DNA of 64,000 bases from Candidatus Aenigmatarchaeota archaeon (GTDB taxonomy: Archaea; Aenigmatarchaeota; Aenigmatarchaeia; PWEA01; JACQIF01): NCBI GenBank assembly GCA_016432325.1, contig CP066684.1, positions 714,112 to 778,111 of the forward strand. Reading direction: 5' to 3'. A model generated the notes under the pieces. The model searched no databases. It was given only the letters and a program-made list of their open reading frames with translations, and was not told where the DNA came from. The position numbers and the translations under genes were made by a program. Each line of letters begins with the position of its first letter. Position 1 is the stretch's first letter. This document shows, one piece after another, positions 2,253 through 45,667 of the stretch.

Positions 2253-5200
2253 TTATTTCACCACTTCAAATTCGGCGGTCAAATCTTTAAATGCGCATGC
2301 ACGCGCCTCTCTCAAGGACGCGTTGTACACGATGCGCGAAGAACCGGTGCGCTTCTTCAGTTCGCCTTCCCATCTTCGAAGGGCTCCCATAGCGTTCGAG
2401 TCTGCGTTTACGTTCAGCGCCACGCGTTCGCTGACTTTAAGGCCCAGTTCTTTGCGCCTCTGTTGCACGGCGCGCGAGAGCTCGCGCACGAACGCTTCTT
2501 CCTCGAGTTCGCGCGAGCTGGTCAAGTCCAGTTCCACCGTTCCCCATCCGAGAGCGCTCGAGAAGGCGCGCCCGCGTTCGGCAACGGCCCGCAGTACGAT
2601 CTCGTCTTTTGTCAACGTGTACGAACCGGCTTTCGCCTTTCCTTCTTTCTTCAAGGCGGCCGCGATCTTCGTTGCGTCCGCTTCTGCGAGCGCCTTCGCT
2701 ATCTTCGGCACGTCCTTGCCGTACTTTGGTCCTGCCGTAGCGTAGTTGAGCTTGACTTCGAAGCCGACATCCGCCAGTACGGTCTCGACGTCCTTGACGT
2801 TGACGAGAGCGCGTATCGTGTCATCCATATCCTTTGCGGCTTTGAGCAGTTCCTTCGAACCCGCAACGACGACCTTCTTCAGCGGGTATCGGAGGCCGAT
2901 TCCGGATTCGTCGCGCAGCGCGAGGCACGCCTCGACGAGCGAGCGCACTCCGTCCATGCTGCGTTCGAGAGCCGTGTTTGTGCGCGCGGTCGTTGGCCAA
3001 TCCTGGAAATGGACACTTTCATTGTCGCCGCTCAGGCCACCGTAAATCCCGTCCGACATGAATGGAGCAAGAGGCGCGAGAATCTTGCTAAGCGTAACGA
3101 GCGCTTCGCCAAGCGTCGCATATACGGCGTTCCTCGAGGCCATTGTGGCGTTCTGGCCCACGCGCTCGCGCACGAGCTTGATGTACCACCTGCTCAAATC
3201 GTTCATAACAAAGTCCTGAACAAGGGCCGGATTGTTCTGGAACTCGTACGCCTCGAAGTTCTTCTCGCACTCCTTGGCGAGCGTGTTGATGCGCGACAAG
3301 AGCCAGCGGTCTTCGACGCGCCGAACGGCCTTGCCCTTTCCCGTATAGCCGTCCGCGTTCGCGTACGTCGTGAAGAACTTGTAGGAGTTCCACAGCGTGT
3401 CCATAGTCTTCTTCATTGCCGCGAGACCGTCTTCCGAATACTTCACAGACTCGTCCGGACTCAGCGAGGCCATGTACAGCCGCGTCGCATCCCGGCCGTA
3501 CTTCTCCACGAGAGTGTTGGGATGTATGACATTTCCGACACTCTTCGACATCTTTATGCCCGACGCATCGAGCATCCATGAGTTAATCAGAACGTTCTTG
3601 AACGGCGCCTTATCGAATACGAGTACGCTCGCGTTCGTTTGTGCATTCCACCAGCCGCGTATCTGGTCCCTCCCCTCTATGTTCAAATCGGCGGGCCAGT
3701 ACTTCTTCAGCTTCTTGTCTGTCGTCGGATAGTCGAGCGCCGACCAGCTCGCGACAGAAGATTCCAGCCAGACGTCCATTATGTCGGGTATGCGCGTCGC
3801 TTCAGCACCGCATTCGCATTTCACGCGAACGGCGTCAATGTAGGGGATGTGCGGGTCGAAATCGTCTGGCACGCTCGCCGTCGCCAGTTTCTGAAGCTCC
3901 TCGAGCGATCCTATGATGGTGGCGCGCCCGCACGCCTTGCAGTCCCATATGGGGAGCGGGACCCCCCAGTATCTCTGGCGAGTGATCGGCCAGTCTGTCA
4001 GGCTCGTGCGGAACCACTCGTCGGTCTTGCGCTTCGCGTGGTCAGGAATCCAGTTGACTTTGCCGTTCTCCTTGACGAGCGCGTCCCTGTATTCCGTTGA
4101 GCGGATGAACCAGTTGTCCATCGCGAGCTGCAGCAGCGGCGTCGAGCATCTCCAGCAGTGCGGATATTCGTGCTCTATCTGTTCCGTGTGGAAGAGCTTT
4201 CCGTTGGCGCGCAGCCAAGCCGTTATCTCCTCGTTCGCTTCCGTGACGTTGCGGCCCGCGAGGTTCGGACCTGCCTCTTTCTTGTATCTGCCGTCCAGCC
4301 CGATTGGATTTATCAATGGCAGTCCTTGCCCCGTGCCTTCGAAGAAGTCTTCGCGGCCGTGTCCGGGAGCAGTGTGGACGAGGCCCGTGCCTGCGTCGAG
4401 CGTCACGTACTGCCTGGAAAGTATGACGCGATAGCCGCCTTCGCGTTCGCTTGCGAGCGGCGTGAAGCCCTTAAGCAGAGGCTCGTACTCTATTCCCTCG
4501 AGTTTCTTACCCGTTTTCTCTTCAAGAACCGTGTAGTGCTTGCCCAATCGTTTCATCAACGGCGCGAGCAGCTCTTTCGCAGCCCAAACCTTCTTCCCGT
4601 CGACTTCGACCTTCGCATAGACGTAATCCGGATGGACCATTATTCCGGTGTTGGATGGCAGAGTCCATGGCGTCGTGGTCCACGCCATCAGATGCTCGTC
4701 GTTACGCGTCTTGAACGTAACGAACACAGACGAGTCCTTTCTCGTCTTGTGAACGGCCTCTGCGTTTGAGAGAGTCGTCTGGCATCTAGGGCAGACGCTG
4801 ACCGGATATTTCCCTTTGGAAAGCAAGCCGCGTTCCTGCGCGCGCTTCACCACAAACCACGCGCCGAACATGTATTCAGGCGCCATCGTGCGGTACGGGT
4901 TGTCCCAGTCGAAGACGAGACAACCGAGGTTCTTGAACTCCTCTGTCATTATCTGCATGTTGCCCGTTGAGAAACGCTTGCACTCCTCGATGAAGCGCTC
5001 GATGCCGAACTCGGCGAGCCGCGTCTTGTCGATGCTGTGCGCCTTCTCGACCTTGTTTTCTATGGGCAGGCCGTGCATGTCCCATCCCGGCCGGTTCTCC
5101 ACGTCGAATCCGCGCATGAACTTGTATCTTGACGCGATGTCTTTCCAGATGCCGTTGAGTGCGGTTCCCAGGTGCAAGTGGCCCGTAGGATAAGGCGGCC

Positions 5201-7348: not shown

Positions 7349-7516
7349 AACACATCGCCCCCAATCCGTTCTGAAGTATTCGAACGAGGTTCGAAGATTT
7401 TCACGCGCCCGCCTCCGCGCGGCGTGAAAACTTGAGACCGCGTTTCAAGATTTTCAGGACCTATCCCCTCCATCCGGTCCCGAAGTATTTGAATGAGGTT
7501 CGAAGATTTTCATACT
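7329..7516. repeat. tandem ~78-nt direct repeat (7329..7406 and 7438..7516, about 75% identical) covering the 5' end and upstream region of the DHH gene
   Basis: Alignment by eye: ccgtgcgcgaagatcttcagaacacatcgcccccaatccgttctgaagtattcgaacgaggttcgaagattttcacgc versus ccgcgtttcaagattttcaggacctatcccctccatccggtcccgaagtatttgaatgaggttcgaagattttcatac. The two copies are separated by a GC-rich hairpin (ttttcacgc...gcgtgaaaa). Confidence 0.7.
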
Positions 7517-7546
7517 CCAGATAGTGCGGACCGATAAATAAAGAAG

Positions 7547-15915: not shown

Positions 15916-16024
15916 GCTCCGGTAGTTCAATTGGCAGAATGCTACGCTGTTAAACACTCCGCTCAAAGGGGCGGGTGCAAGCGGAGACGTAGAGACGGAG
16001 GTTCGAGTCCTCCCTGGAGCGCCA
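15916..16024 (+). tRNA. tRNA-Asn(GTT), canonical 37/38 intron (34 nt), CCA encoded
   Basis: Acceptor GCTCCGG/CTGGAGC plus G plus CCA. D arm GTTC-AATTGGCA-GAAT. Anticodon arm CTACG-CTGTTA[15953..15986]A-CGTAG. T arm GGAGG-TTCGAGT-CCTCC. The intron has a CTCCGC/GCGGAG helix. Mature length is 72 nt. A weak TATA (ctttacgt, 15884..15891) is centred 28.5 nt upstream. Confidence 0.9.
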
Positions 16025-39460: not shown

Positions 39461-39485
39461 AGGGCCGGCTCATCAGGAAACATAT

Positions 39486-39534
39486 GCGGGAGTAGCCAGA
39501 ACTGCGGTTCTGAAACTCCCCCATTGAAGAACAT
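39486..39534 (+). other. promoter-proximal duplicate of the tRNA-Leu(GAG) 5' end, folded as a hairpin (leader or extra intron)
   Basis: GCGGGAGTAGCC (39486..39497) is identical to tRNA positions 1-12. GGGAGT pairs with ACTCCC (39515..39520), enclosing the hairpin AGAAC-TGCG-GTTCT. Confidence 0.6.
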
Positions 39535-39756
39535 GCGGGAGTAGCCTAGACTGGTCAATGGCGCCGGCTTGAGGGGCCGGTTCCTTAGTGGATTCGCCGG
39601 TTCAAAGCTTTTTGCGCCAATGCGCATAAAGCTCAACGCGCAAAAGGCTTTAGCAGAAATACGCCTTCGTGCATCTTCGAACGATTGCGTTCGAAGTATT
39701 TCGGACGCAGTCCGAAAACGAAGGCGCGCGTTTCGAAATTCCGGCCTCCCGCACCA
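39535..39756 (+). tRNA. tRNA-Leu(GAG), one 133-nt T-loop intron (59/60), CCA encoded
   Basis: Exons are 39535..39606 and 39740..39753. Acceptor GCGGGAG/CTCCCGC plus A plus CCA. Anticodon arm CCGGC-TTGAGGG-GCCGG. Long variable arm TTCCTTAGTGGATTC. T arm GCCGG-TTCAAA[39607..39739]T-CCGGC. Mature length is 86 nt. Confidence 0.85.
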
Positions 39757-43286: not shown

Positions 43287-43580
43287 ATGGGAAGAAACGA
43301 AACCTTCGGTTTCAATCTTCCCCGTGAGTTGAGCTATATGGGAAGAATAAAGACCGCGCAGGTGAAGTCTCTCGGCAAGGATTTCGTCAAGGCCTATCCG
43401 GACAGGTTCACGACAGACTTCGACAAGAACAAGGAGATTCTGGCGACGGCCCAGATGAAGTCCAAGTGGCTCAAGAATCGTCTGGCCGGATACACGGCGA
43501 AGCTCATGAAGCAGAAGGCCCGCGGCGTCATCATAACCGCTCCTCAGAAACAGGAAGAAGAGAAGAAGGAAGAGACATAG
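43287..43580 (+). CDS. rps17e: 30S ribosomal protein S17e
   Basis: MGRIKTAQVKSLGKDFVKAYPDRFTTDFDKNKE...KNRLAGYTAKLMK matches S17e. Homology begins at the second MGR (43338), but the TATA spacing favours the leaderless ATG at 43287, so the start is ambiguous. Confidence 0.85.
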   Translation: MGRNETFGFNLPRELSYMGRIKTAQVKSLGKDFVKAYPDRFTTDFDKNKEILATAQMKSKWLKNRLAGYTAKLMKQKARGVIITAPQKQEEEKKEET

Positions 43581-43587
43581 TGGGATT

Positions 43588-43956
43588 TGGTGCGGAGGGC
43601 CGGACATTCTCCATGAATGCGCCAAGGCACATCGTGCCCGCAGGCGGATTTTTCATGAAAGTTTTTGCACGGAAGTGTGCAAAAAGTTTCGAACCGACGA
43701 ACGCACTAAGCGACCAGATATCTCGAAGCGCATTTTTGATTTTCGCGTTTCGGATAAGCCTTCTTGAGTGTTGCCTCTCACAGAGTTTCCTCTCGAAACT
43801 CAAGGAACTGGCACCGTTGGTCTACGACTTCGTGTCGGAAGACGTACTTTCCGTGCATCTCGGAACGCGTGCGTTCCGAGTTTCCGAATACCGTTCGGAA
43901 ATGCTTTTGCGCTCTGTGGCGCAAAAGCTTGCTTGGCCAGGCTTGGTTACCTCCGC
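43588..43956 (-). tRNA. tRNA-Leu(CAA), four introns (D-loop, anticodon stem 30/31, 37/38, T-loop 59/60), CCA encoded
   Basis: Exons are 43956..43933, 43816..43808, 43769..43763, 43719..43688 and 43604..43591. Acceptor GCGGAGG/CCTCCGC plus A plus CCA. The spliced anticodon arm is CCAGA-CTCAAGA-TCTGG (a perfect 5 bp). The variable arm TCGCTTAGTGCGTTC parallels that of Leu-GAG. T arm GTCGG-TTCGAAT-CCGGC. Mature length is 86 nt. Introns are 116, 38, 43 and 83 nt. Confidence 0.7.
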
Positions 43957-44015
43957 AAACTAAACCGACTTTCTTGCGGCAGGTACAAGAAGCTTTGCTT
44001 CTTGGTTACCTCCGC
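43957..44015 (-). other. promoter-proximal duplicate of the tRNA-Leu(CAA) 5' end, folded as a hairpin
   Basis: GCGGAGGTAACCAAG (44015..44001) is identical to tRNA positions 1-15. GCGG/GGTA pairs with TACCTGCCGC (43985..43976), enclosing the hairpin AAGAAGC-AAA-GCTTCTT. Confidence 0.6.
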
Positions 44016-44041: not shown

Positions 44042-44049
44042 ATATAAAT
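44042..44049 (-). promoter_or_regulatory. TATA box (ATTTATAT) upstream of the tRNA-Leu(CAA) locus
   Basis: Centred 30.5 nt upstream of the pseudo-5' copy at 44015. Confidence 0.55.
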
Positions 44050-44621
44050 CACTTAATCCTCGCAAGCTCCTTTTTCAGGTTGGAAAGCTCGCTCTGCAGC
44101 TCGGAGACGTATTGCGTTACGCGCGCCCGCTCCTTGGAGCGCGGTATCTCTATCTCCGCCTCTTCGGGGCGCACGAACTCGCCGTCCAGAGAGATGAGGA
44201 CGTCTGTGAGGTCCGTGACCGCCTGGCGCATCGCCTTCATGGTGCTGTCGCGGACGTGCTCCACTTCGTTCAAAAGGACCATTGTATCTGTCACGCTATG
44301 CAGGGACACCTTGATTTCCTCGAGCTTCTGGAGAATCTCCTTGTATCTGTCGATTTTGACGAACAGAGGCGCCATTTCTGACGCACGGAGAGTGCGTTCC
44401 ACGGTCTCACCGACAGGCGGCCCGTACACCGGCATCTGAGGAGCTTGCGGAACAGGACCGGAGATGGGCTGGGGCGTCCATGAAGGTGCAGGAGGCAGGG
44501 CCATGGAAGGCGGAGCCATCGGAGGCAAGGGCGGCAGAGGAGGTCGCGCGGCGCCCACCCTGTCTTTTACGGCCTGTATGTCCGTGCGCTCCTCGCTCTT
44601 CTTCCAGAAAGCCATTCGCAT
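44049..44621 (-). CDS. hypothetical protein: Pro-rich N-region plus coiled-coil C-domain
   Basis: The start is trimmed to MRMAFWKK because the ATG at 44663 abuts the TATA. It has PPLPPLPPMAPPSMALPPAP followed by a heptad-like helical part (LFVKIDRYKEILQKLEEIK...). Confidence 0.55.
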   Translation of the reverse strand: MRMAFWKKSEERTDIQAVKDRVGAARPPLPPLPPMAPPSMALPPAPSWTPQPISGPVPQAPQMPVYGPPVGETVERTLRASEMAPLFVKIDRYKEILQKLEEIKVSLHSVTDTMVLLNEVEHVRDSTMKAMRQAVTDLTDVLISLDGEFVRPEEAEIEIPRSKERARVTQYVSELQSELSNLKKELARIK

Positions 44622-44662
44622 CCCTATAAGTGTAACAACTGCATAGTGTTCAGGGGAACCCA

Positions 44663-44670
44663 TTTATAAA
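44663..44670. promoter_or_regulatory. palindromic TATA box TTTATAAA shared by tRNA-Gly (+) and the 44049..44621 gene (-)
   Basis: Centred 31.5 nt from tRNA-Gly position 1 and about 45 nt from the ATG at 44621. Confidence 0.5.
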
Positions 44671-44697: not shown

Positions 44698-44824
44698 GCG
44701 CCGATGATCTAGTGGCATGATTCGAGCTTCCCAAGCTCGTTGTGCGGGTTCGATGACATCCTGTCCCATGGGGCGGGAGGTTTGAAACGCGAAGCGTTTC
44801 AGGAATATCCCGCTCGGCGCACCA
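44698..44824 (+). tRNA. tRNA-Gly(CCC), one ~53-nt T-loop intron (58/59 or 59/60), CCA encoded
   Basis: Exons are 44698..44753 and 44807..44821. Acceptor GCGCCGA/TCGGCGC plus A plus CCA. Anticodon arm CGAGC-TTCCCAA-GCTCG. T arm GCGGG-TTCGA[intron]AT-CCCGC. Mature length is 71 nt. Confidence 0.85.
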
Positions 44825-44840: not shown

Positions 44841-44964
44841 CTCCGCCTCCTGCCGTGCACGGAAAACGGAAGTTTTCCGGCATTTTCGAACAGTGGTTCG
44901 AAAGGTTCGGATTGCATCCGAACATGCCGAAACGTCTATGCCGTTTCGTGCACAAGGGCGGGAG
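44841..44964 (+). ncRNA. candidate structured RNA element: four consecutive perfect hairpins closed by a long-range helix, immediately 3' of tRNA-Gly
   Basis: Hairpins: GGAAAAC-GGAA-GTTTTCC (44861..44878), TTCGAAC-AGTG-GTTCGAA (44885..44902), GTTCGGAT-TGC-ATCCGAAC (44905..44923) and CGAAACG-TCTATGC-CGTTTCG (44928..44948). Flanking GTGCAC/GTGCAC and CTCCGCC/GGCGGGAG pairings close the structure. The strand is uncertain. The 3' part overlaps the last ~9 codons of the GIY-YIG ORF. Confidence 0.3.
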
Positions 44965-45667
44965 GCCCGAACTGTATTCGTGTCGACGCCAGCGCATCCG
45001 TGAAGAGCCTCTCGTCCGCATCGTTCATCGGCGGCGCGCCGGCATGCTGGACGAGCCACATACCGCTCTCCCGGATCTTCTGGACTGGAGACGAGAGGCC
45101 CAGCCATGTCGGCGACACGCGGCATTCGTTGCAACCGGCCACCGTGCCGATAAGAGAGGCTTCCAAACCGTCCGTGCCCATGCGCTGCGTTTGATTATCG
45201 ACAACGATGAACCTGAATGAAAAGTTTTCGCGGAGGATGCGCGTGACCTCGGCTTCGACAGAGCGCTCTTTCTCAATGTCCCGCAACTTGAAGCCGGCTT
45301 CGCGCGAAGCGCGCGTTGTGAAGTCCTTCTCCCAGACAGCGAGGTAGGGATCGTTGGCGCGGTTGAGCAAAGCGCGCCCGATGTTTTTTCTGAAGATGCT
45401 CCTGTCGTGCGGCGGAGATTTCGTTGCGTCAAAATCCATCTTCTTTTCATCGACGAGGAAGTGCTCTGAAACGCGGCTGCGGAAATTTCCGTCCTTGTGC
45501 GTGCCTATGCGCACGATGCGCGGGCGCGAGCCTCCGTGGCCCCATGTCTCTCCTATCTCGTACAAAAAGTAGATGCCGTTGCGCGGAAGCGCGCTCACGT
45601 CAAAGGGCCACCTGACGAGCGGCAGCGTCTCAAGCTTTTCGTGGAGCGCCTTGCACGTCTGGGACAT
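44936..45667 (-). CDS. GIY-YIG nuclease superfamily protein
   Basis: LPRNGIYFLYEIGE...RIVRIGTH matches the GIY...YIG-type N-terminal motif pair. It is the last gene of a four-gene operon. Confidence 0.55.
   Translation of the reverse strand: MSQTCKALHEKLETLPLVRWPFDVSALPRNGIYFLYEIGETWGHGGSRPRIVRIGTHKDGNFRSRVSEHFLVDEKKMDFDATKSPPHDRSIFRKNIGRALLNRANDPYLAVWEKDFTTRASREAGFKLRDIEKERSVEAEVTRILRENFSFRFIVVDNQTQRMGTDGLEASLIGTVAGCNECRVSPTWLGLSSPVQKIRESGMWLVQHAGAPPMNDADERLFTDALASTRIQFGPPALVHETA

Follow-up and report, generated by a model that had tools for sequence, protein, structure and literature searches.

The locus described here raises the question of whether a tRNA gene that is cut into five pieces, two of them shorter than ten nucleotides (nt), can still be a working gene. 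It lies on the minus strand of contig CP066684.1 of Candidatus Aenigmatarchaeota archaeon (assembly GCA_016432325.1), within the 64,000 nt between positions 714,112 and 778,111. This whole stretch was analyzed and is called the window in the following; all coordinates refer to it unless another contig is named. A preliminary description had proposed that positions 43956-43588 hold a tRNA-Leu(CAA) gene interrupted by four introns. Judging from the sequence analyses presented below we consider it highly probable, at roughly 85%, that a functional tRNA-Leu(CAA) gene of the Aenigmarchaeota (DPANN) is present here, with four introns of the archaeal endonuclease type. Introns of this type are associated with the bulge-helix-bulge (BHB) motif, in which two 3-nt bulges, each cut as NN|N, surround a helix of 4 base pairs (bp). 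Besides the strict form of the motif (hBHBh’) there are the relaxed forms hBH and HBh’.

The five exons of the preliminary description were confirmed base for base, including the lengths of 9 and 7 nt for exons 2 and 3, the gene of 366 nt and the product of 86 nt. Read on the minus strand, the exons have lengths of 24, 9, 7, 32 and 14 nt. Exon 1 (43956-43933, GCGGAGGTAACCAAGCCTGGCCAA) contains the 5’ strands of the acceptor stem and of the D-stem as well as the D-loop, corresponding to tRNA positions 1-21. Exon 2 (43816-43808, CGGTGCCAG) provides the 3’ strand of the D-stem, position 26 and positions 27-30 of the anticodon stem, and exon 3 (43769-43763, ACTCAAG) consists of position 31 and the anticodon-loop positions 32-37, including the anticodon CAA. 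Exon 4 (43719-43688, ATCTGGTCGCTTAGTGCGTTCGTCGGTTCGAA) covers position 38, the 3’ strand of the anticodon stem, the long variable arm, the 5’ strand of the T-stem and the T-loop positions 54-59. The last piece, exon 5 (43604-43591, TCCGGCCCTCCGCA), adds T-loop position 60, the 3’ strands of the T-stem and the acceptor stem and A73, and is followed by an encoded CCA (43590-43588). Up to the discriminator the gene measures 366 nt; the CCA brings it to 369 nt. Between the exons lie intron 1 of 116 nt in the D-loop at 21/22 (43932-43817), which contains three perfect hairpins, intron 2 of 38 nt in the anticodon stem at 30/31 (43807-43770), intron 3 of 43 nt at the canonical 37/38 site (43762-43720) and intron 4 of 83 nt in the T-loop at 59/60 (43687-43605), all on the minus strand. 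Altogether the introns account for 280 nt, compared to 86 nt of tRNA.

When the exons are joined, ARAGORN calls the product tRNA-Leu(caa) with a length of 86 nt (89 nt if the encoded CCA is included), in agreement with the identity and the anticodon stem CCAGA/TCTGG that had been proposed. The spliced tRNA has an acceptor stem of 7 bp (GCGGAGG/CCTCCGC), a D-stem of 3 bp and the anticodon loop CUCAAGA; its variable arm is long, and its T-arm reads GTCGG-TTCGAAT-CCGGC. Among the conserved tRNA nucleotides, U8, A14, G18-G19, U33, G37, G53-T54-T55-C56, C61 and A73 are present in the joined exons. A second tRNA-Leu with a parallel long variable arm, also announced by the preliminary description, was found as Leu(GAG) at 39535-39756 on the plus strand (TTCCTTAGTGGATTC against TCGCTTAGTGCGTTC). 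The spliced Leu(CAA) can be aligned almost without gaps with this Leu(GAG) and with a Thermoplasmata tRNA-Leu(CAG). The anticodon stems in this three-way alignment read CCAGA/TCTGG, CCGGC/GCCGG and CTAGA/TCTAG, and the differences between them preserve pairing. The join of exon 1 to exon 2 creates the D-arm TAACCAAGCCTGGCCAACGGTGC, which is identical to that of the uninterrupted Thermoplasmata gene (L013). In the raw sequence the gene is not visible to the standard tools. ARAGORN with default settings reports 0 tRNAs for the 64-kb window; with introns allowed it finds tRNA-Asn only and misses the tRNA-Leu(CAA) locus. Likewise the Rfam search of the window gave only tRNA-Asn at gathering score and nothing tRNA-like at the tRNA-Leu(CAA) locus even at E <= 10.

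We then placed each junction in a BHB register, using a rule calibrated on the canonical intron of tRNA-Asn and 11 further introns of the window. The register of intron 1 is GGCC[AA|G]...GACC[AA|C], with 3 of 4 pairs in the central helix and an outer helix of 2 bp. For intron 2 it is TGCC[AG|T]...GGCA[AC|A], with all four central pairs and 2 bp each in the outer and the inner helix. Intron 3 (CTCA[AG|A]...CGAG[AT|A]) has 3 of 4 central pairs and an inner helix of 4 bp; the 5-bp anticodon stem, formed only after exon 2 has been joined to exon 3, provides its outer helix. Intron 4 (TTCG[AA|A]...AGAA[TG|T]) again has 3 of 4 central pairs and uses the 5-bp T-stem as outer helix. Introns 1, 3 and 4 show the BHB motif in relaxed form only. 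For random position pairs the probability of a central helix with at least 3 of 4 pairs is 0.148 and that of a complete one 0.019; the probability of finding at least 3 of 4 pairs at all four junctions is ~5e-4. Some junctions are ambiguous (by a CCAA repeat at intron 1 and by one A at intron 3), and in these cases the boundaries given above have the best register among the possible shifts, at intron 1 the best of five equivalent CCAA shifts.

For the two very short exons we carried out an exhaustive two-piece search, in which exons 1, 4 and 5 were fixed, positions 22-37 were sought in the 213 nt between them, and G-U pairs as well as any Leu anticodon were allowed. The search returned exactly one solution, identical to exons 2 and 3. 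When the sequence was shuffled preserving dinucleotides, some solution with a Leu anticodon appeared in 29 of 1000 shuffles, but none of the 1000 had a central helix of at least 3 of 4 pairs at the three junctions concerned. The four introns at the proposed boundaries are supported by this unique parse, by the shuffles and by the registers of the ambiguous junctions. In addition the RNAfold minimum-energy structure contains the UGCC:GGCA helix of intron 2. As to the proposed check of each exon-intron boundary for a BHB motif, the register fits at all four junctions; the minimum-energy folds do not reproduce all of the motifs.

The tRNA-Leu(CAA) gene is not the only interrupted one in its surroundings. 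A scan of the window for pairs of acceptor stem and T-arm ending in CCA, followed by manual parsing, yielded six more tRNA genes and thus at least 7 in the window, all of them interrupted, with 16 introns in total. All seven encode the CCA, and each of their spliced products is recognized by ARAGORN as a tRNA with the anticodon expected for it. Among the six further genes, ARAGORN and Rfam (at gathering score) see Asn alone; the standard finders report almost no tRNAs in the window because the tRNA genes are interrupted. On the plus strand there are Asn(GTT) at 15916-16024 with one intron at 37/38 (15953-15986), Leu(GAG) with one intron of 133 nt at 59/60 (39607-39739) and Gly(CCC) at 44698-44824 with one intron at 59/60 (44755-44807). 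Three introns each are found on the minus strand in Gln(TTG) at 7752-7547 (7732-7707, 7688-7639 and 7617-7564), Arg(TCG) at 29522-29259 (29502-29393, 29373-29352 and 29329-29276) and Glu(CTC) at 27085-26866 (27062-27030, 27012-26967 and 26945-26883). Each of these three genes is interrupted once in the D-loop, once at 37/38 and once at 59/60. tRNA-Leu(CAA) has the same three intron sites and an extra one at 30/31.

All 16 introns of the window have a central helix with at least 3 of 4 pairs, and in 10 of them it is complete. A textbook hBHBh’ motif is seen in intron 2 of tRNA-Gln, where 6 pairs form the outer helix, 4 the central and 6 the inner one. An intron at 59/60, in the position and register of intron 4 of tRNA-Leu(CAA), occurs in five other tRNA genes of the window. 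In these introns the T-stem is the outer helix, and TTCG or TTCA (positions 54-57) is one strand of the central helix. The inner helix is replaced by a self-contained hairpin following the 5’ bulge, which corresponds to a relaxed motif of the HBh’ type.

Comparison with orthologous loci, which the preliminary description had put forward as a check, succeeded for the first part of the gene. Anchoring on the 204-amino acid (aa) open reading frame (ORF) next to the gene (44049-44663) led us to an orthologous locus on contig L016 (Logan run SRR27109257). The encoded protein is 64% identical to that of the window, and the contig belongs to a relative at 64–70% protein identity. Exon 1 is identical in 24 of 24 nt (L016 3914-3937), and the sequences diverge on both sides of it, immediately after ...GGCCAA. 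A 23-nt stretch, CACGGAAAGTACGTCTTCCGACA, is common to intron 1 of the window and intron 1 of L016. This supports exon 1 together with the beginning of intron 1, and nothing of exons 2-5 is covered by L016.

The other side of the 204-aa ORF is flanked by tRNA-Gly(CCC), which was compared with its orthologs. The copy of the window has a T-loop intron, the one on contig L017 (304-419) has a D-loop intron of ~44 nt and a continuous T-loop (GGTTCGATTCCCGC), and the one on contig L019 (1680-1607) is intronless. The continuous tRNA-Gly sequences equal what is expected of the window gene after excision of its 59/60 insertion, which validates the 59/60 intron class. At the level of sequence comparison, the tRNA-Gly orthologs also indicate that gain and loss of introns are rapid in this lineage. 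The neighboring genes of tRNA-Leu(CAA) code for a class II LysRS, Nop5 and ribosomal protein S17e, with the 204-aa ORF as the other neighbor. Homologs of this Nop5 assign the genome to the Aenigmarchaeota (DPANN); the contig has a length of 874,869 bp. Beside Nop5/S17e no tRNA-Leu was found in the relatives L001-L003, L021, L023 and L024, and gene order is therefore not conserved. A pattern scan of genome contigs with GCGGNGGTAACCNAGCCTGG gave 12 matches and none in Aenigmarchaeota; one of them, a Thermoplasmata tRNA-Leu, was used as comparator. Scanning metagenome contigs with a 20-mer gave a single match, in a GC-rich stretch without resemblance to a tRNA; the matches of both scans are regarded as due to chance. 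Contig L022 is 100% identical to the window and so contributes no comparative information. As a side observation, tRNA-Gly is adjoined by a 243-aa ORF (44936-45667, minus strand) to which the precomputed annotation of the identical contig assigns PF26468 (GIY_YIG_3); a Pfam scan of this ORF gave no family at E <= 0.01.

Several observations weigh against a functional gene with four introns. The central helix is perfect in intron 2 alone, and the other three introns each contain a mismatch. The motif of intron 1 is weak, with a C·A mismatch, an outer helix of only 2 bp and no clear inner helix, and the minimum-energy folds fail to reproduce all of the BHB motifs. Exons 2-5 are without support from a close relative, since contig L016 ends (4046) inside intron 1. 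Furthermore a Pfam scan of 30 ORFs of the window, which represents 64 kb of a genome of ~875 kb, found neither the tRNA-splicing endonuclease EndA (tRNA_int_endo) nor RtcB, and the rest of the genome has room for a second, uninterrupted tRNA-Leu(CAA).

Such a second copy would be compatible with a decayed tRNA-Leu pseudogene, in which insertions of small hairpin repeats are not spliced and UUG is read by another tRNA-Leu, either the second CAA copy or a UAA tRNA. The insertions are indeed made of repeated hairpin modules that are seen at other loci and in another species, as would be the case for small mobile repeats, and the mismatches in three of the four central helices point in the same direction. 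However, the cloverleaf pairing of the exons is perfect, none of the universal tRNA nucleotides has been lost, and every insertion is located exactly in a BHB register. Exon 1 is conserved to 100% in L016 between diverged flanks, and the tRNA-Gly genes of the relatives show that the product of a 59/60 removal is a real tRNA sequence. We regard a pseudogene as unlikely and retain the functional tRNA-Leu(CAA) gene with its four introns.

Upstream of this gene a TATA-like box, TTTATATC (44048-44041, minus strand), represents a putative promoter. It is located 25 nt upstream of a copy of the tRNA 5’ end that forms part of a leader hairpin (44016-43975, minus strand). Three elements make up this hairpin: TGCGGAGGTAACCAAG (44016-44001), which directly copies the 5’ end of the tRNA; CAAGAAGC-AAA-GCTTCTTG, which forms an inner hairpin; and TACCTGCCGC, a strand resembling the 3’ side of the acceptor stem. 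Its folding energy is -24.2 kcal/mol (z = -4.1). L016 shows the same arrangement: its TATA-like box, TTTTATATCC, and its copy of the tRNA 5’ end are 22 nt apart. Equivalent leader hairpins are present at Leu(GAG) (39484-39524, plus strand) and at the Leu(CAA) gene of L016 (3876-3910); the three folds have energies of -24.2, -19.2 and -20.9 kcal/mol and z-scores from -3.5 to -4.5. The leader hairpins lie ~22–25 nt downstream of the TATA-like box, at the distance where the other tRNA genes of the window start. Both strands of the outer stem repeat those of the cognate acceptor stem (GCGGAGG/CCTCCGC for CAA, GCGGGAG/CTCCCCC for GAG), while the inner hairpin varies between loci. In a literature search we found no description of a leader hairpin that copies the acceptor stem in this way.

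The upstream copy bears on the possibility that the tRNA gene is interrupted in another manner, be it with other boundaries of the micro-exons or with a fifth intron extending from 44016-44001 to the gene proper. This copy has the usual distance of a tRNA start from the TATA box, and a UGCG self-pair between the two copies gives a central helix of 4 of 4 pairs in one register. The intron 1 junction is moreover ambiguous by up to 4 nt within the CCAA repeat. On the other hand, the exhaustive search yielded exons 2 and 3 as given above and nothing else, and among the equivalent shifts a BHB register was found only at these boundaries. A fifth intron would have neither an outer nor an inner helix, its central helix is reduced to 3 of 4 pairs in L016, and it would conflict with the stable leader hairpin. 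We rejected it, as the UGCG self-pair is trivial and flanking helices are missing. Altogether a different exon structure appears very unlikely. A chance assembly of short tRNA-like words, for instance on the antisense strand of a protein gene, can practically be dismissed: exons 2 and 3 are very short, 2.9% of the shuffles give some Leu solution without the junction constraint, and the locus is overlapped by a plus-strand ORF (43466-43963) annotated as a gene in L022, the contig identical to the window, but exons 1, 4 and 5 alone form 70 nt of a textbook tRNA-Leu in the right order, on the right strand and with a CCA end, 0 of 1000 shuffles pass the junction constraint, exon 1 is conserved as a discrete block of 24 nt, and the overlapping ORF has no Pfam match on record. 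Gene prediction in L022 put a 116-aa ORF (3276-3626, corresponding to 43613-43963 on the plus strand of the window) antisense to tRNA-Leu(CAA); it has no Pfam match and is probably a false gene.

Other kinds of genetic elements were considered for the locus as well. Group I introns of tRNA genes, such as that of bacterial tRNA-Leu(UAA), are single insertions of at least 200 nt in the anticodon loop with a P1-P9 ribozyme fold. Here there are four insertions of 38–116 nt, and Rfam gave no group I family even at E <= 10. In split or permuted tRNA genes of the Nanoarchaeum or Caldivirga type, the pieces come from different loci or stand in permuted order, with separate promoters and a complementary leader and trailer. 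This type was rejected on the grounds that the five exons are collinear and share one strand, a span of 369 nt and a single TATA-like box upstream. A C/D-box guide RNA within the introns was also rejected; Rfam gave only a chance-level match to snoR24 (E = 2.1), and the RUGAUGA box was not found.

The preliminary description had further pointed out that CTTGAGT at the 5’ end of intron 2 is complementary to exon 3, and had called this expected if pairing between exon and intron builds the cleavage motif. The complementarity is exact: nt 5-11 of intron 2 (43803-43797, minus strand) are the reverse complement of exon 3 (43769-43763), a match with an estimated chance of ~0.004 (~70 positions x 4^-7). 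Its role in cleavage could not be upheld, since the pairing lies outside both BHB motifs. CTTGAGT:ACTCAAG encloses the GGCA strand and excludes the central helix UGCC:GGCA, and is therefore not the cleavage motif. As a part of the BHB of intron 2 it was ruled out, the two pairings being mutually exclusive. It may represent an alternative fold of the precursor or an evolutionary trace of the origin of the intron.

For the maturation of the four-intron gene we propose the following pathway. Transcription from the TATA-like box (44048-44041) would yield a single precursor of ~430 nt that begins with the leader hairpin. EndA would cut within both 3-nt bulges of each BHB-like motif, and an RtcB-type ligase would join the exons. 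With lengths of 9 and 7 nt, exons 2 and 3 would be released by simultaneous cuts on both sides, so that the introns would have to be removed one after the other. Intron 2 would probably be removed ahead of intron 3, as the outer helix of intron 3, the anticodon stem, needs the ligation of exon 2 to exon 3. Folding of partly spliced intermediates left the order of splicing unsettled.

When comparing the introns with each other we noticed hairpin modules that are shared between genes. The 5’ hairpin of intron 4 of tRNA-Leu(CAA), CTTTTTGCACACTTCCGTGCAAAAAC (43686-43661), matches the start of intron 1 of tRNA-Arg (29498-29473) in 25 of 26 nt, the same hairpin opening a T-loop intron in Leu(CAA) and a D-loop intron in Arg. 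Intron 3 of tRNA-Gln (7605-7566) and intron 3 of tRNA-Arg (29317-29278) are 87.5% identical over 40 nt. The T-loop introns of Gln, Arg and Gly have a common 3’ end, GAAACGC...GCGTTTCA-[TG]GAA-NN|T, and that of Leu(GAG) ends similarly. Modules are shared between species, too: 45 nt from the T-loop intron of Leu(GAG) (39672-39716) are 100% identical to a part of intron 1 of Leu(CAA) in L016 (4002-4046). No copies of the modules were found outside tRNA genes in the 64-kb window, and viral contigs contained no match to an exon pattern or to two intron modules for which they were scanned. Contigs of the relatives stop inside the tRNA-Leu gene (L016, 4046) or just before it (L019, 2332); the assembly breaks at tRNA genes are probably caused by the repeated intron modules.

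That introns of different tRNA genes have hairpin modules in common points to a spread of introns between tRNA genes, which by analogy would resemble the intron transposition of Thermoproteales. As a tentative and rather doubtful extension, the tRNA introns of this lineage might be modular mobile RNA elements that move between genes, positions and species, with the leader hairpin acting as an element of pre-tRNA processing or quality control. Separately, we observed a structured intergenic stretch between tRNA-Gln and a gene of the DHH family (7350-7520, minus strand), with a TATA-like sequence, TTTATTTAT, just upstream. Within it GAAAATCTTCGAACCTCRTTCRAATACTTC, a sequence similar to the 45-nt intron module, occurs twice; the stretch has a fold z-score of -2.5 and no Rfam match.

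tRNA genes with several introns have been described in other archaea. In Thermoproteales (Pyrobaculum, Thermofilum, Caldivirga) multiple introns occur (Sugahara et al. 2008; Fujishima et al. 2010; reviewed in PMC4390854), and reviews put the maximum at three per gene. The genes of the window resemble these in having BHB introns at non-canonical sites besides 37/38, several introns per gene and related introns across tRNA genes. They differ from them in that tRNA-Leu(CAA) has four introns instead of three as well as micro-exons of 7 and 9 nt, that the host belongs to DPANN and not to the crenarchaea, and that the introns are long (up to 133 nt) and made of perfect hairpin modules.

A closer precedent exists in the Asgard archaea. 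According to a 2024 report on Atabeyarchaeia and Freyarchaeia, most tRNA genes are interrupted there, more than half of them have multiple introns in three genomes, and tRNA finders miss some of the introns (PMC11291895). Its Supplementary Data 4 tabulates tRNAs with four introns, namely Trp(CCA) of Atabeya-2 and Arg(TCT), Ile2(CAT) and Leu(GAG) of Freya. The claim of the preliminary description that four introns in one tRNA gene would be very unusual has to be narrowed accordingly: such genes are rare, but they have a precedent in this tabulation. The Asgard genes share with tRNA-Leu(CAA) the four introns and the fact that standard finders miss them in part. They are shorter (~140–230 nt, compared to 366 nt) and belong to a different phylum. 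Intron sequences common to several genes and a leader hairpin, both seen here, are not mentioned for the Asgard genes in the passages and the table consulted.

Within the DPANN superphylum, to which the host of tRNA-Leu(CAA) belongs, several lineages show a marked disruption of tRNA genes, in a 2018 analysis whose scope lay outside the tRNA genes of Aenigmarchaeota (PMC5829648). The same work took incomplete tRNA sets in some new DPANN and Asgard genomes as a sign of unidentified disrupted genes, and described DPANN endonucleases of broad specificity, the epsilon2 EndA of ARMAN-2 and alpha4 EndAs with an L3 loop (PMC5829648). In the red alga Cyanidioschyzon merolae, one tRNA gene can combine D-loop, 37/38 and T-loop introns with relaxed BHB motifs; reverse transcription PCR demonstrated an ordered stepwise removal there, and genes have up to three introns (PMC3728597). 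tRNA-Leu(CAA) has introns at these three kinds of sites and relaxed motifs as well; it is an archaeal gene with four introns, in contrast to the maximum of three in that eukaryotic nuclear genome. A literature search for tRNA introns of Aenigmarchaeota found no paper on the subject.

Multi-intron tRNA genes as such are known already, and what is notable in the present case is the phylum, the length of 366 nt, the micro-exons and the modular introns. With its four introns and micro-exons of 7 and 9 nt the tRNA-Leu(CAA) gene extends extreme tRNA gene fragmentation to the Aenigmarchaeota (DPANN). It also serves as a warning that “missing tRNAs” in DPANN genomes, and hypothetical ORFs called over such loci, are artefacts of annotation. 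For the biology of tRNA splicing, the locus offers a compact natural substrate for the ordered removal of several introns around micro-exons by an archaeal endonuclease and a ligase.

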